From contig JAIXSY010000038.1 in assembly GCA_027484445.1 (NCBI GenBank), positions 3,915 through 67,914 of the forward strand: a stretch of 64,000 nucleotides of DNA, in the 5' to 3' direction. The notes under the pieces are model-generated. The model made no database searches and was not told the origin of the DNA. It saw only the letters and a program-made list of their open reading frames with translations. The stretch is from Verrucomicrobiaceae bacterium. Its GTDB lineage: Bacteria > Verrucomicrobiota > Verrucomicrobiia > Verrucomicrobiales > Verrucomicrobiaceae. Within the stretch, counting starts at the first letter, position 1; each line of letters starts with the position of its first letter. Below, piece after piece: positions 9,501 to 13,298 of this stretch. The translations under genes and the position numbers were made by a program.

Positions 9501-9872
9501 TTCATTGAAAACGTGCCAACCGCCGTGGCCGAGTATCAGGTTTCCGGCCGGAACGTCCTGCGCCAGTGGTTCAGCTATCGCAAGGCCGACCGCACCCGCC
9601 CGGTCATCGGCGACCGCCGCCCGCCATCAGCGCTGGACAAGGTCCAGCCCGATCACTGGTTGCCCGAGTATACCGAGGATCTGCTGAACCTGCTGCACGT
9701 CCTTGGCCGCCTTGTTGCACTGGAACCGGCGCAGGCCACCCTTCTCGAGGAAATATGTGCTGCACCGTTGCTCACAGAGGCGTCTCTGACGGCGGCAGGT
9801 GCATTGGTGGCGGCGCCAGTGGTGAAGGGCAAAAAGGCGAAGGCAGCGACTCAGCCCGGGTTGTTCGACTGA
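6513..9872 (+). CDS. Single-chain restriction-modification enzyme: PD-(D/E)xK nuclease, N6-adenine MTase and type ISP-like C-terminal specificity region (type IIG/IIL-like, no helicase)
   Basis: RPDY...FIELK nuclease motif, GSYYTP, DPATGTGTFL (motif I), GNPPY (motif IV), YSFRSFDRQW and YQVSGRNVLRQWFSYR. Start placed at ATG 6513 after GGGAG. Confidence 0.85.
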   Translation: MFDQIISKYGITAKAKLSNPAITGAPEDNIRAPLEELITALAEAAGQQPGWVTLVGESTLSALGTRPDYAVTVRSALTGFIELKAPGKGADPRKFTDPHDKRQWQKLKSLPNLIYSDGQSFSLWQNGAIVGQIIHLSGDLDTAGAKLTAPQTLVTLLTDFLSWSPIPPDSPRKLAEVSARLCRLLRDEVLEELENGTQSLTDLATEWRGLLFPQADDAQFADGYAQAVTFGLLMARAQDIPLDKGIAHAALALRDTNTLIGTALRLLTDDPQTQKALSTAISTLTRVLHEVHWPTLSKGKPDAWLYFYEDFLEVYDNALRKKTGSYYTPPEVVQAMVRLTDEALRDPALFGRHEGLAAKDVTIADPATGTGTFLLGVLRKIAETVADDQGAGAVGPALGAAAHRLIGFELQFGPFAVAQLRLMAEMRALMGVSSTGSGSGANLPQPRLFVTDTLGDPYAAQTQFSTMLAPIGNSRKEANAIKRDEPITVVIGNPPYKEKAKGRGGWVEKGSDGRAAPMKHWDLPKAWGRGAHAKHLKNLYVFFWRWASWKVFAADLLETIGVEPDDRGGIVTYITVSGFLNGPGFEKMRMELRRDCSDIWVIDCSPEGHQPEVPTRIFQGVQHPICIVLAARKKGKDRATPARLHVRQLSTGPRKDKFTELKSITLAGSGWTDGPSEWRAPFLAGSKGEWASFPALDALYQYNGSGVMPGRTWVIAPDAQSLTDRWARLVREKDPKTKEVLFYPHEGGDKTLTKLTKVGLSGHEFRGTAVDKDFAGPIRPIRYSFRSFDRQWIIPDNRLLNRPNPELWSGFSQGQVHLTGLTSAAPSDGPAVSFSGFVPDMDHFCGRGGRVFPLWRDAAATISNIKAALLVHLSAIYGKPVSAPDLMAYIAALLAHRAFTARFKDDLILPGLRVPLTADAALFDRAVTLGREVIWLHTYGERFADSSASRPATPPRMPKAQGPTIPVGGTIPGAPHPLPDTMHHDPSTGRLHVGEGFIENVPTAVAEYQVSGRNVLRQWFSYRKADRTRPVIGDRRPPSALDKVQPDHWLPEYTEDLLNLLHVLGRLVALEPAQATLLEEICAAPLLTEASLTAAGALVAAPVVKGKKAKAATQPGLFD

Positions 9873-9970
9873 GCGAGGCAAACAGCGGACCTCGTCCCGC
9901 AGAAGCGCAACGGCCTGGATCCCGCAACTGGTGTTTCGCCCGAGATTGAAACTGGATGAATCTGTTTTCG

Positions 9971-10002
9971 CGACTGTCCCGGCCAATAGGTCGGGGCAGT
10001 CG
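9971..10002. terminator. Hairpin between convergent RM and E1 genes
   Basis: CGACTGTCCCGGCC-AATA-GGTCGGGGCAGTCG, a stem with G.U pairs; no classical U-tract. Confidence 0.35.
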
Positions 10003-10007
10003 CCAAG

Positions 10008-11402
10008 CTAGGCCTGAAGGGGGTCAAAGGGCATCTGGTCGCCCAAAGCTGTCAGACCCGGAAAGTAGCACCCCGCATTGCATTCCACGGCTTCGCCGCG
10101 GTCGAGGCTTGCCGTTGCAAAGTGGTAGTTCAAGGGCCCTGGAACTGCGACGCCAGCAGGCTGCACCACCATAGACAAGAACTGAAGCATCTGTAGCCCC
10201 GCGGCATTCATGCCGAAGGAGAAGACGTTCTCGTTTTGGCGGGCGGGATGGCTCAGCGGCAGACCCGAAATATAACTCGGATCATCAAGCAGCCCGGTGC
10301 GTTCCAAAGCGACATCAGCCGGATCGTACTGACCGATGCAAGCAAGGCAAGCATGGCCGGGCAAGATGGCGTGGGCGCGCCAGTCTGCCCCCCGCATGTT
10401 ACCTTTCGTCGTCATGGAAACCCGGACACCCCCATCAATTACCGGAATGAGGTGTGCGGTTGCTATCGTGTTCAGGACATAGCGGGGCCAGGGCCGATCA
10501 ACGCAGCTGAAGATCACATCGCAATCGAGAACTGCGCGAAAGCCGTCTTCCATGGTGATCGAGACGGGGAGAGCTTCGACCCGGAAATTTCCAGATGTCG
10601 CGCAGGCTGTCAGACGCGCGGCCGATGTCTCGACCTTGAGTCTTCCGATGTCGCTCGACGTGGCGTGGACGAGCCGATCTAGGTTGTGCTTTTCGACAGA
10701 GTCGAAGTCGATCAGCATCACATCCTCGGTCCCTTGCCGACAGACAGCTTCCGCGACGAGTCCGCCCACGCTGCCGACACCGACGACGCCAATACGCAAC
10801 CGCGCGAGATCGCGCTGCTTCCTTGCTCCCCAGGCAGAAGTCGTGCGCCGGAGCTCTTCGCGATACGGGGGTGGTGGGGCCAACTTATCATGGAAGGTGC
10901 AGGCGAGCCCATCACCCACCACGCGCACACTGCCGCACCATTCCCGTTCGTATTGTCCGCGGCCGCGCCGGAACCAGAACCGACCGCTCCAGGCGCCGTC
11001 CGTCCCGAGCGTCATCCCGAGCAGGGGATGGCCGGTTGCTGCGAAAGCACGAGGCGCAAGGCGCTCTTCCGCAACCACGTCGTCGCGGCTCATGCCCTGC
11101 CAGCCCGGAGAGGGATGGCTATGCAAAAAGGCAAGTCCGGCGCCCGCCCCGACTGCCATCGCAAGCGCCCGCTCGAAGTAGCGTCCCTCGAAACTGACGT
11201 TGCCCTGGAGTTTCCGTTCGCCTTCTTCCGGAAGGATGACTTCGTAGACAAGGGCGGTGAGGCGGCTTCGCCCCGTGCTGGGTCGCCAAAGGGCAAAGCA
11301 AAGGTCCTCTTGGCGGCTTCGCGAGTAGTGTTGGAGCAAGTGAGCCGCCAAAGCACCATGCGTCTCTGTGGACATGGCCACGCTGTTGGTCACGCGGCTC
11401 AT
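10008..11402 (-). CDS. JAB/JAMM peptidase - ThiF/E1-like adenylase fusion
   Basis: N-terminal E...HSHP-x7-SRDD JAMM-like motif. ThiF motifs GVGSVGG, DFDSVEKHNLDR and CVD; Zn-type CLAC plus C-terminal CNAGC. ATG overlaps the upstream stop (ATGA). Confidence 0.9.
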   Translation of the reverse strand: MSRVTNSVAMSTETHGALAAHLLQHYSRSRQEDLCFALWRPSTGRSRLTALVYEVILPEEGERKLQGNVSFEGRYFERALAMAVGAGAGLAFLHSHPSPGWQGMSRDDVVAEERLAPRAFAATGHPLLGMTLGTDGAWSGRFWFRRGRGQYEREWCGSVRVVGDGLACTFHDKLAPPPPYREELRRTTSAWGARKQRDLARLRIGVVGVGSVGGLVAEAVCRQGTEDVMLIDFDSVEKHNLDRLVHATSSDIGRLKVETSAARLTACATSGNFRVEALPVSITMEDGFRAVLDCDVIFSCVDRPWPRYVLNTIATAHLIPVIDGGVRVSMTTKGNMRGADWRAHAILPGHACLACIGQYDPADVALERTGLLDDPSYISGLPLSHPARQNENVFSFGMNAAGLQMLQFLSMVVQPAGVAVPGPLNYHFATASLDRGEAVECNAGCYFPGLTALGDQMPFDPLQA

Positions 11403-12070
11403 TGGGTAGCCCACAGATGACGGACAAACGCCATGTATTCCCCGACGGTTTTTCGGGTGTCGCTCCAGCCGGTGAACGGCCGGCTCCAGTACTGGAACTC
11501 GTCCGACAATCCGCTGTGGCCGGAGCTCAGATGGATTCCACCCGTCGGATGACCACCCCCGCCCTGCAATCCATGAATGTGGGGCCGGACATGAGGCCCC
11601 GACGGCGGCGTGATAGGAAAGTCAGGAGGCACCTTGAAGCCCATCGTGACGATGCGGCCCGCGAGGCGACCCAGCTCGACGGTGTATTCGAAGGTGATGT
11701 TGCCATCGCCGACTTCGGTCGCTTCATATCCCAAGGCCGAGAGCCCGGCCAGGAAGTTCGCCACCCCGAATTGCTGCGGGAGTTCAGAGACCGGGGTGGG
11801 GCCAGTGAAAACGCTGACGAAGGTGTCGCCCTTCTGGATGTGGATCGGCTCGTCGCCGCGCCCTTGGAAGCTGTCCTGCTTCTTGTTCTTGATCTCGATC
11901 AGGTAGTGATCCGAAGGGGAAAGGCCAGCCAGACCAAGGAGTTGGTTGGGGGTCTCTGTATGGTCTTTGACCAGATATTCTTCGCCATCGATGAAGATCA
12001 GGAACGACTTTGCCGCAGCTTCGTTCTGGCGATTCGCTTCGTCTCGGTTGATTTCACTCTCGTTGCCCAT
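11399..12070 (-). CDS. Multi-ubiquitin-like (beta-grasp) domain fused to a prokaryotic E2-like domain
   Basis: N-half IFIDGEEY...TPNQLLGLAGL...YLIEI...PIHIQKGDTFVSVFTG is Ubl-like. C-half VPPDFPITPPSGPH...QYWSRPF..W resembles Prok-E2 families. The protein contains no Cys. Confidence 0.82.
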   Translation of the reverse strand: MGNESEINRDEANRQNEAAAKSFLIFIDGEEYLVKDHTETPNQLLGLAGLSPSDHYLIEIKNKKQDSFQGRGDEPIHIQKGDTFVSVFTGPTPVSELPQQFGVANFLAGLSALGYEATEVGDGNITFEYTVELGRLAGRIVTMGFKVPPDFPITPPSGPHVRPHIHGLQGGGGHPTGGIHLSSGHSGLSDEFQYWSRPFTGWSDTRKTVGEYMAFVRHLWATQ

Positions 12071-12097
12071 CACAGAGCCTTTCTTTTCTAAGGTGAA

Positions 12098-12166
12098 TGG
12101 ACTAAACTGACTGTATAGTCCCTGTGTGGACTAATCTACCGTGAGACTTTTATGGGAGTCAAGTCC
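12098..12166. promoter_or_regulatory. Divergent promoter region with repeated GGACTA/TAGTCC half-sites
   Basis: GGACTA 12099-12104, TAGTCC 12116-12121, GGACTA 12128-12133, AAGTCC 12161-12166. Candidate minus-strand promoter TTGACT (12162-12157)-N18-TAGATT (12138-12133). Confidence 0.55.
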
Positions 12167-12180
12167 ATGACGAGACCGCT

Positions 12181-12585
12181 ATGACGGCCGCGCAAGTTGC
12201 AGACACATCCGGCATCTCGATACTGTCACCTGGTGACGATCAGGCCGCTCTCAGGGCATTCTTTCAGATTGCAGAGGCTTGGAACCTCACCACGGATGAC
12301 CAGTTGAAACTTCTTGGTAGCCCGCCGCGGTCCTCATTCTTCAAGATGAAGAAGGACGGGGGTCAATTGAGCAGGGATCAGCTCGAGCGGATCTCGCATA
12401 TAATCAACATTTACAAGTGTTTGCGGATTCTGTTCACCGATCAAGCCATGGCAGACAAGTGGGTGGTGCAGCCCAACAAAGCGCCGTTCCTTCAAGGTCG
12501 GTCGGCGCTGGAGTTCATGGCACGTGACGGGTACCTTTCCGACATCTTCCAGGTTCGACGCTACCTGGACGCCCAGCGAGGCTAA
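12181..12585 (+). CDS. Xre/MbcA/ParS-family antitoxin (HTH plus toxin-binding domain)
   Basis: ALRAFFQIAEAWNL...LLG...ERISHIINIYKCLRILF...W...PN...VRRYLDAQRG is the typical family profile; it lies directly upstream of a RES gene. Confidence 0.9.
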   Translation: MTAAQVADTSGISILSPGDDQAALRAFFQIAEAWNLTTDDQLKLLGSPPRSSFFKMKKDGGQLSRDQLERISHIINIYKCLRILFTDQAMADKWVVQPNKAPFLQGRSALEFMARDGYLSDIFQVRRYLDAQRG

Positions 12586-12593
12586 CCCCGTCG

Positions 12594-13298
12594 ATGCAGC
12601 AATTGTCCCAAGTGGCGCCTACGTGTGTTCCTACGTACCGTTTGATTCCATCGCGGTTTCCGCCGGTCGAACTCTATGAACCGGTTTGCCAGCCCCGTGA
12701 TTGGGACGGCACAAAGCGGGTTGAAGCCATGACCAATCCTCGGCTCCGAGAGATGGCAACTGGCTTAGGTCTGCTCCACCCCGACGATCGCGGTCGGGTG
12801 ACGCAGAACTGGCTTGTTGCTCCGTTCACTTACCCCGATCCGGAGCCAAGCCAATTTAGTGATGGGAGCTTTGGCTACAGCCTAGTCGCGGATACGAAAA
12901 AGGGCGCGCTTCTTGAAGCAGTGAGGCGACGCGAGCTGTTCTTGTCCAGCACTGAGCAAGGCGCGACACGTTTGGAGATGCGGATGCTCAAAATGCCCGT
13001 TCATTCCGAATTGCTATGCCAGTGCGAAGTGAACGAACCTGATGATTGGCAGCGCTCCCATGCAATGGTGCGCTCGTTGCGTGATGCCGGGTCCTATGGA
13101 TTTTGGCTTCCGAAGCGCGAAGGCCTGGGACGTCTAGCGGTTGTTCTTCGACCGACAGCATTTCAGACCGCCGTGCAAGCGGAACACTATGCATTTATTT
13201 GGAACGGCAAGTCTATCGAGGCGATCTACGATTTTTCCAACGGCGAAACGCTAGATCCAAACGAACTCAAAGTCTTGGCCAACGCTCAGGCAGCCTAA
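12594..13298 (+). CDS. RES-domain protein (NAD+ phosphorylase family), apparently degenerate
   Basis: TYRLIPSRFPP, EAMTNPRL and FSDGSFG are recognisable, but several family-conserved positions differ (see findings). Confidence 0.85.
   Translation: MQQLSQVAPTCVPTYRLIPSRFPPVELYEPVCQPRDWDGTKRVEAMTNPRLREMATGLGLLHPDDRGRVTQNWLVAPFTYPDPEPSQFSDGSFGYSLVADTKKGALLEAVRRRELFLSSTEQGATRLEMRMLKMPVHSELLCQCEVNEPDDWQRSHAMVRSLRDAGSYGFWLPKREGLGRLAVVLRPTAFQTAVQAEHYAFIWNGKSIEAIYDFSNGETLDPNELKVLANAQAA

Follow-up and report, generated by a model that had tools for sequence, protein, structure and literature searches.

The subject of this analysis is a pair of adjacent genes in a 64-kb stretch of DNA (64,000 nucleotides, hereafter the window) from contig JAIXSY010000038.1 of a Verrucomicrobiaceae bacterium. 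The first gene codes for an Xre-type helix-turn-helix (HTH) protein and the second for a protein of the RES fold, and the pair stands head-to-head with a ubiquitin-like (Ubl) operon. The two proteins probably form a co-repressor that is derived from a toxin-antitoxin (TA) module and controls the divergent defence operon, in a manner analogous to the CapH+CapP, CapW and CapK+CapS regulators. The gene order is that of the RES-Xre TA systems, the catalytic residues of the RES protein have been lost, degenerate pairs of this kind are linked to defence operons, the same cassette is found in front of different operons, and the intergenic region carries a conserved operator architecture.

The open reading frames (ORFs) of the pair are separated by 8 nt. 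A 107-bp intergenic region (12074-12180) is common to the pair and to two leftward ORFs, which overlap each other (Table 1). This arrangement had been pointed out in an earlier reading made from the DNA letters without database searches (the sequence-only reading) and is borne out by the ORF coordinates. The leftward ORFs code for a BubAB-like Ubl-E2 fusion without cysteine and a BubCD-like fusion of a JAB peptidase with an E1. The latter matches the Pfam ThiF family (E 4.8e-29) and also the E1-E2 models of PADLOC. This architecture fits the Type I Bub (bacterial ubiquitination-like; 6E.1) operons of Ye et al., which are defined by BubAB Ubl-E2 and BubCD JAB-E1 fusions and form oxyester intermediates (bioRxiv 10.1101/2024.11.21.623953).

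The RES protein and its Xre partner

The Xre protein carries PF20432 Xre-like-HTH (E 7.9e-13) and the PF09722 toxin-binding domain (E 2.3e-8), as assigned by Pfam. Among 80 homologues the HTH and the C-terminal motif VRxYxDAQRG are at least 80% conserved, and so is the recognition region LLGSPxRSTFFKWKK. The conservation of this region is consistent with one shared DNA specificity. The RES protein matches PF08808 weakly, with 31-32 bits against a cut-off of 23.2, which is by far the lowest score among the four RES genes of its own genome. The three further genes (C54:68786-69217, C62:33905-34384 and C47:5537-5944, with 105, 94 and 50 bits) are probably ordinary RES toxins.

Searches of the PDB sequences with the RES protein, with the Xre protein and with a profile of 32 sequences matched no RES structure. 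The AlphaFold2 model of the RES protein (pLDDT 82.7) has its best Foldseek match in the toxin NatT (8qnl_C, E 1.9e-10, TM 0.62), followed by MbcT, the RES protein of P. putida and ParT. A canonical relative, P0072, bridges to NatT, since the two can be aligned across the GSRF, AE and YxS motifs. Compared with the canonical relatives P0072 and L007 and with NatT, the window's protein has SQFSDGSFGYSLVA in place of SRFSDG..GVYYA, ALLEAVRR in place of AIAETRYH and GFWLPKRE in place of GIVYDSVRE. The Arg of the catalytic triad is replaced by Q87, the Tyr-Tyr pair by S96 and L97, and the Ser by P173 or K174, depending on where the gap is placed. The sequence-only reading had reported these motif changes, which are real, but it counted the loss of the Ser only, while the Arg and both Tyr residues are gone too. 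The Glu that it described as kept is present as E108, but the position is occupied by E, D, L or A within the window's own subclade.

The protein therefore has the fold of the RES family and an Xre gene directly upstream, as do the characterised toxins, and lacks their conserved site of Arg, Tyr, Glu and Ser. Its residues indicate a RES fold without a catalytic site, in which catalysis appears to have been lost. A replacement catalytic set was also looked for in the degenerate clade; none is common to the window's subclade and the large clade, and the former active-site positions vary freely. The polar residues T47, N48, R50, R113, R130, Q195 and H198, which are common to the canonical enzymes, stay invariant. 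One practical consequence is that the label "RES family NAD+ phosphorylase" should be treated with caution in Alphaproteobacteria, where it often covers non-enzymes.

Linkage and portability of the cassette

One genome per species was scanned, which gave 80 related loci, 20 with an intact RES site and 60 with a degenerate one. Neighbour types were assigned by clustering and by hidden Markov model searches of the flanks, with spot Pfam checks. The Xre gene lies directly upstream of the RES gene in all 80 loci. The intact loci (SRFSDG..GVYYA, AE and Y.SVR) come mostly from Betaproteobacteria and represent one clade, while the cassette with the degenerate site was found mostly in Alphaproteobacteria in this sample. 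A Ubl/E1-type operon is divergent from the pair in 55 of the 60 degenerate loci and in none of the 20 intact ones (Fisher p 1.5e-14, without phylogenetic correction). The association of degenerate rather than intact RES homologues with E1/E2/Ubl operons, which the sequence-only reading had raised, is thus found in the survey.

The neighbours are of several kinds. Eight pairs face a Type I Bub operon and 17 face a Type II Bub operon (Multi_ubiq, DUF6791-ThiF, DUF6527). Type II Bil (bacterial ISG15-like) operons, with Ubl, Metal_CEHH, JAB and Prok-E2_C-ThiF, are found in 16 loci and in one more at a contig end. A Bil-like set (DUF7665, JAB, ThiF) whose two-domain Ubl has Gly as its last residue accounts for five loci and a probable sixth, and a BilD_N domain was found in one added contig of the subclade with this set. 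The neighbour is a Cap2-like E2-E1 fusion with a Cap3-like JAB protein in six loci, and a Type II CBASS (an antiphage system that signals by cyclic oligonucleotides) with patatin, a DncV-like nucleotidyltransferase (NTase) and Cap2 (Prok-E2_B-ThiF) in one. No E1 is visible in the CBASS of two further loci (SMODS+AGS_C with SLATT_4 or patatin). A dCTP-deaminase-like operon, a decayed Ubl remnant and no recognisable neighbour were found in one locus each.

Across at least seven operon types, and between RES proteins that are as little as about 30% identical, the divergent layout with a shared promoter region is kept. Three extra contigs of the window's own subclade have the identical head-to-head arrangement. 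Co-location by chance, or by common residence in defence islands, can be ruled out by the strictness of this promoter sharing, by its persistence to about 30% identity and by the rarity of BubCD-like E1 genes, which occur in 11 of the 401 genomes of the class. The RES tree shows at least 17 switches in the type of the partner operon. This is seen most directly in two Enterovirga genomes with near-identical cassettes, one of which (L016) faces a Type II Bil operon and the other (L027) a Type II CBASS. The fact that the pair fronts Bub I and II, two Bil types, Cap2/Cap3-like, CBASS and dCTP-deaminase operons points to a generic portable regulator. The sequence-only reading had suggested that it may control the Ubl operon; the linkage to Ubl operons stands, but the module is not specific to them.

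The reverse comparison is also informative. The Xre/RES pair is absent within about 6 kb of all 12 BubCD-like matches outside the window's own genome, two confirmed Bub I operons included, which rules out the RES protein as an obligatory Bub component. The closest sampled Bub I operons, L094 (9543-10539) and L095 (4407-5872), have 52-54% BubCD identity and carry in the same divergent slot an HTH protein together with an HExxH (M78-like) peptidase. Judged by eye, these two proteins resemble a CapH+CapP-like pair. Since the closest Bub I operons hold such a pair instead, the Xre/RES pair appears to be one of several interchangeable upstream modules. In L094 the BubA and BubB proteins are encoded by separate, unfused ORFs. 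Interchangeable upstream modules also fit the published record, in which many Bub and Bil operons have CapW, CapH+CapP or CapK+CapS divergently upstream, with the promoter region in common (PMC10557695; bioRxiv 10.1101/2024.11.21.623953; PMC13373217).

The C-termini of both proteins also differ between the two groups of loci. An Ala-Ala end, preceded by variable residues, is present in 52 of the 60 degenerate RES proteins (in 34 of them as LAA) and in none of the 20 canonical ones. The Xre protein stops exactly at ..DAQRGG-COOH in 52 of the 60 degenerate loci. Of the 20 canonical loci, 15 have an Xre protein with an end other than -RGG, and in most of these the chain extends to RGGWA, RGGWS or RGGDFS. 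In the window the Xre protein ends in -QRG (positions 12571-12585).

Some of the surveyed loci have additional genes. A small basic protein with two YRSAxSGR[FY]VTxxxGKSxPRTTVxEK repeats and without a Pfam match is encoded between Xre and the defence operon in three loci. In two Novosphingobium loci a second RES/Xre pair lies directly downstream of the first, in convergent orientation. Compact units of a Cap2-like E2-E1 gene, a Cap3-like JAB gene, Xre and the RES-like gene are present in Sphingobium (L020) and Ensifer (L046) within unrelated flanks, and neither unit contains a Ubl, cyclase or effector gene.

The twin operator and the setting of the window

The intergenic region of the window contains two copies of a palindrome of the form GGACT-N13-AGTCC, the predicted operators O1 and O2, with an extra half-site between them. 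In the 220 bp upstream of Xre in 61 degenerate loci, this palindrome (at most one mismatch) occurs at 96 sites, compared with 0.35 in shuffled sequences, while other gap lengths of the same palindrome give 0-10 sites. The top enriched hexamer upstream of Xre in the degenerate loci is TGGACT/AGTCCA, and 3 of the 13 copies of TGGACT in the window fall within 70 bp here. Two palindromes 44-46 bp apart are present in 40 of the 61 degenerate loci, while no canonical locus has more than one such palindrome. The architecture, [GGACT-N13-AGTCC-N6-GGACT] x2, is unchanged whichever operon lies on the left. In the related loci L001 and L002 the half-sites are kept and the spacers differ.

The operators are predicted in silico to overlap the leftward promoter that they would control. 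The -35 element of this sigma-70-like promoter abuts the right half-site of O2, and its -35 and -10 elements are bracketed by O2 and the middle half-site. The sequence gtcaAGTCC (reverse complement GGACTTGAC) recurs in the displayed loci and places a TTGAC -35 element beside a half-site there too. A TATAGT hexamer resembling a -10 element (12114-12119) overlaps the right half-site of O1.

Table 1. Positions of the genes and predicted regulatory sites of the window, and of additional genes in related loci
Feature	Position	Strand	Details
Xre-type HTH protein, 134 aa	12181..12585	+	N-terminal HTH LLGSPPRSSFFKMKK; C-terminal RES-binding domain, end ..YLDAQRG
RES-fold protein, putative pseudo-enzyme, 234 aa	12594..13298	+	Q87, S96/L97, P173/K174; end ..NAQAA-COOH
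BubAB-like Ubl-E2 fusion, 224 aa, no cysteine	11399..12073	-	first gene of the presumed controlled operon
BubCD-like JAB peptidase-E1 fusion, 468 aa	10008..11414	-	HSHP..S..D JAMM motif and ThiF domain
Predicted operator O1, GGACT-N13-AGTCC	12099..12121		perfect palindrome; half-sites 12099-12103 and 12117-12121
Extra GGACT half-site	12128..12132		6 nt after O1 (AGTCC-N6-GGACT); recurs in most related loci
Predicted operator O2, aGACT-N13-AGTCC	12144..12166		half-sites 12144-12148 and 12162-12166; 45 bp start-to-start from O1
Predicted sigma-70-like leftward promoter	12133..12162	-	-35 TTGACT (12162..12157), 18-nt spacer, -10 TAGATT (12138..12133)
Type IIG/ISP restriction-modification fusion, 1128 aa	6486-9872	+	PADLOC REase_MTase_IIG, 1349 bits
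Small basic repeat protein	L013:5230-5445	-	
Small basic repeat protein	L079:4530-4883	-	
Small basic repeat protein	L080:5233-5586	-	
Second RES/Xre pair	L067:6766-8093		Novosphingobium
Second RES/Xre pair	L069:4978-6305		Novosphingobium
Cap2-like/Cap3-like/Xre/RES-like unit	L020:3008-5433		Sphingobium
Cap2-like/Cap3-like/Xre/RES-like unit	L046:3014-5289		Ensifer

The operon of the window differs from the published Type I Bub operons in one component. BubE is reported in all Bub operons (bioRxiv 10.1101/2024.11.21.623953), but no BubE/DUF6527 gene was found in the 64 kb of the window (positions 9872-10008 included), in L001-L003 or in the window's own genome, which is 95.9% complete. Type I Bub loci at a greater distance (L009, L010, L019, L038 and L071) do have BubE/DUF6527. 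At its 3' end the Bub operon meets a convergent gene for a Type IIG/ISP restriction-modification fusion, and L002 is arranged in the same way. The surrounding region resembles a conjugative element, with ParA/VirC1, relaxase and restriction-modification genes.

Proposed repression by the pair and other explanations

It is useful to compare the cassette with the RES-Xre TA systems, that is, P. putida Xre-RES, P. aeruginosa NatRT, M. tuberculosis MbcTA and Sphingobium ParST. The two folds and the order of the genes are the same, the Xre protein has the same HTH and RES-binding domains, and palindromic operators lie upstream in both. In P. putida the RES dimer is needed for a DNA-binding 4:2 complex with two Xre dimers, to which repression is due, free Xre being a weakly repressing monomer; repression by NatRT also comes from a 4:2 complex (PMC12204516). 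A complex of this composition would fit the twin operator of the cassette. The differences are that the Arg, Tyr-Tyr and Ser are lost and variable in the degenerate clade, that a C-terminal Ala-Ala has been gained, that the operator is doubled across a divergent promoter, and that the pair stands head-to-head with a defence operon, unlike its intact relatives.

A twin operator with a spacing of 45 bp is what a 4:2 complex would bind, allowing us to read the RES-like protein as a scaffold or co-repressor without catalysis. By analogy with canonical Xre-RES, the inactive RES-like dimer would hold two Xre dimers, and the resulting 4:2 complex would bind O1 and O2 together. The twin operator is predicted to overlap the leftward Bub promoter and the cassette's own presumed promoter, and both would then remain shut off for as long as no signal disrupts the complex. 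The cassette, consisting of promoters, operators, Xre and the RES-like gene, travels as a unit and is plugged in before different defence operons. The sequence-only reading had proposed such a switch, made from a pseudo-enzyme and Xre, for the divergent operon; the linkage to Ubl/E1-type operons and the conserved twin operator support it, with DNA binding, repression and stoichiometry suggested by the analogy.

A C-terminal Ala-Ala is a recognition signal of the ClpXP protease, as in the ssrA tag and in CtrA of Caulobacter. Our preferred guess for the trigger, held tentatively, is that the Ala-Ala end makes the RES-like scaffold a substrate of a ClpXP-type protease. With a short-lived scaffold, repression would need continuous synthesis of the RES-like protein and would collapse on host shut-off or stress.

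The cassette is an analogue and not a member of the known regulators. CapH+CapP, CapW/BrxR and CapK+CapS are, like it, small modules divergently upstream of CBASS, Bil and Bub operons with the promoter region in common. They have no homology to the pair, for which Pfam gives only Xre-like-HTH/Xre_MbcA_ParS_C and RES and PADLOC gives no match. The partner of the HTH protein is a peptidase, a WYL domain or a kinase in the CapP/CapW/CapS type of module, and a putatively dead ADP-ribosyltransferase-fold protein in the cassette. CapW, CapH+CapP and CapK+CapS respond to DNA damage or single-stranded DNA.

Several observations weigh against control of the divergent operon by a repressor of this kind. 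The survey comprises 53 unique sequences, many of them close relatives, and they do not count as phylogenetically independent in its association statistics. That catalysis is lost is read from the residues of the RES protein themselves. In the window O2 carries one mismatch, and the rightward promoter has no clear assignment. The C-terminus of the RES protein is modelled as a helix (residues 222-233; pLDDT 59 for the last four residues) and not as a free tail. In addition, the bias towards E1-containing partners (55 of 60) is not obviously expected of a fully generic regulator; co-transfer, or a direct biochemical tie to E1/E2, might lie behind it.

Such a tie is the basis of another explanation, which for the RES protein the sequence-only reading had offered as its alternative: the RES-like protein, or Xre, could be a covalent substrate of the adjacent E1/E2, its C-terminus being adenylated and conjugated in the way that Cap2 treats the CD-NTase of Type II CBASS. 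Beyond any regulation, it would then belong to the conjugation pathway itself as cargo, effector or feedback target. The E1 bias, the Ala-Ala end of the RES-like protein and the -QRGG end of most degenerate-clade Xre proteins are in its favour, as is the lack of a Ubl or other candidate substrate in the Cap2/Cap3-like loci (L020, L046 and relatives). There is also a precedent, since a CBASS cyclase is conjugated via a C-terminal alanine (PMC11153139). Like the CD-NTase of Type II CBASS, the RES-like protein has an enzyme fold and a small C-terminal residue (Ala), and its gene adjoins E1/E2/JAB genes. However, the gene and the HTH partner that belongs to it lie on the opposite strand, and cassettes with the same tail also front E1-less CBASS and dCTP-deaminase operons. 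The pair does not co-occur obligately with E1/E2 genes, and conversely the other BubCD-like E1 loci do without it (12 of 12). Bub, Bil and CBASS operons already come with a substrate, a Ubl or a cyclase, and most partner operons have a Ubl of their own. The E1 families concerned (Bub without cysteine, BilD and Cap2) are very unlike each other. The canonical relatives conserve the Xre RGG too, at an internal position, and it therefore probably serves RES binding, while the window's Xre does not end in -RGG. Conjugation of either protein is thus quite unlikely. We consider it equally improbable that the neighbouring E1/E2 adenylates or conjugates the C-terminus of the repressor (Xre -RGG, like ubiquitin, or RES-like -LAA), such that the pathway removes its own repressor in a feed-forward switch, with the RES-like protein as cargo in the Cap2/Cap3-like loci.

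The pair could also be a TA module that still works, for addiction or abortive infection, by another toxic mechanism. It would then travel with defence islands, and its operators would serve autoregulation only. The fold, the gene order and the Xre partner are those of the RES-Xre TA systems, the region resembles a conjugative element, where TA modules are common, and 7 of the 20 canonical relatives also have one GGACT-N13-AGTCC site. This explanation is very unlikely, because the degenerate clade has no conserved set of polar replacements of its own, the shared promoter region is strictly retained across operon types and at low RES identity, a doubled operator extends over the promoter of the partner operon, and the two closest Bub I operons hold a CapH+CapP-like pair in the identical slot. 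A variant closer to repression by the pair is that the RES-like protein keeps a pocket for NAD+ or ADP-ribose as a ligand sensor, so that a nucleotide signal (NAD+ depletion or an ADP-ribose derivative) would release the repressor and proteolysis would not be involved. The ADP-ribosyltransferase/RES fold is preserved with good model confidence, many polar residues in common with the canonical enzymes, the seven named above, are invariant, and in NatRT the toxin activity affects promoter binding (PMC12204516). The expected NAD+ contacts, however, are the Arg, Tyr-Tyr and Ser that are lost and now variable, and contact with Xre would explain the invariant residues just as well. A sensor of this kind seems doubtful.

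No description of a RES/Xre pair beside Bub, Bil or CBASS was found in the freely searchable full texts, including the key Bub, Bil, CapK/S and Aravind-group papers, in agreement with the sequence-only reading, which knew of none. It is still an open matter what turns on the ubiquitin-like (Bub, Bil) and CBASS operons of bacteria, and no biological role of Bub is known. If the cassette acts as proposed, it would be a fourth family of regulators, unrelated to CapW, CapH+CapP and CapK+CapS and built from a dead NAD+-consuming toxin, and would present a clear path from a toxin-antitoxin module to a pure regulator. It would also be a compact, portable unit of promoter, operator and repressor with a defined 23-bp site. 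It might respond to a different trigger, for instance to proteolysis, to a shut-off of translation or to an NAD-related ligand, and this could help to find when Bub operons act.

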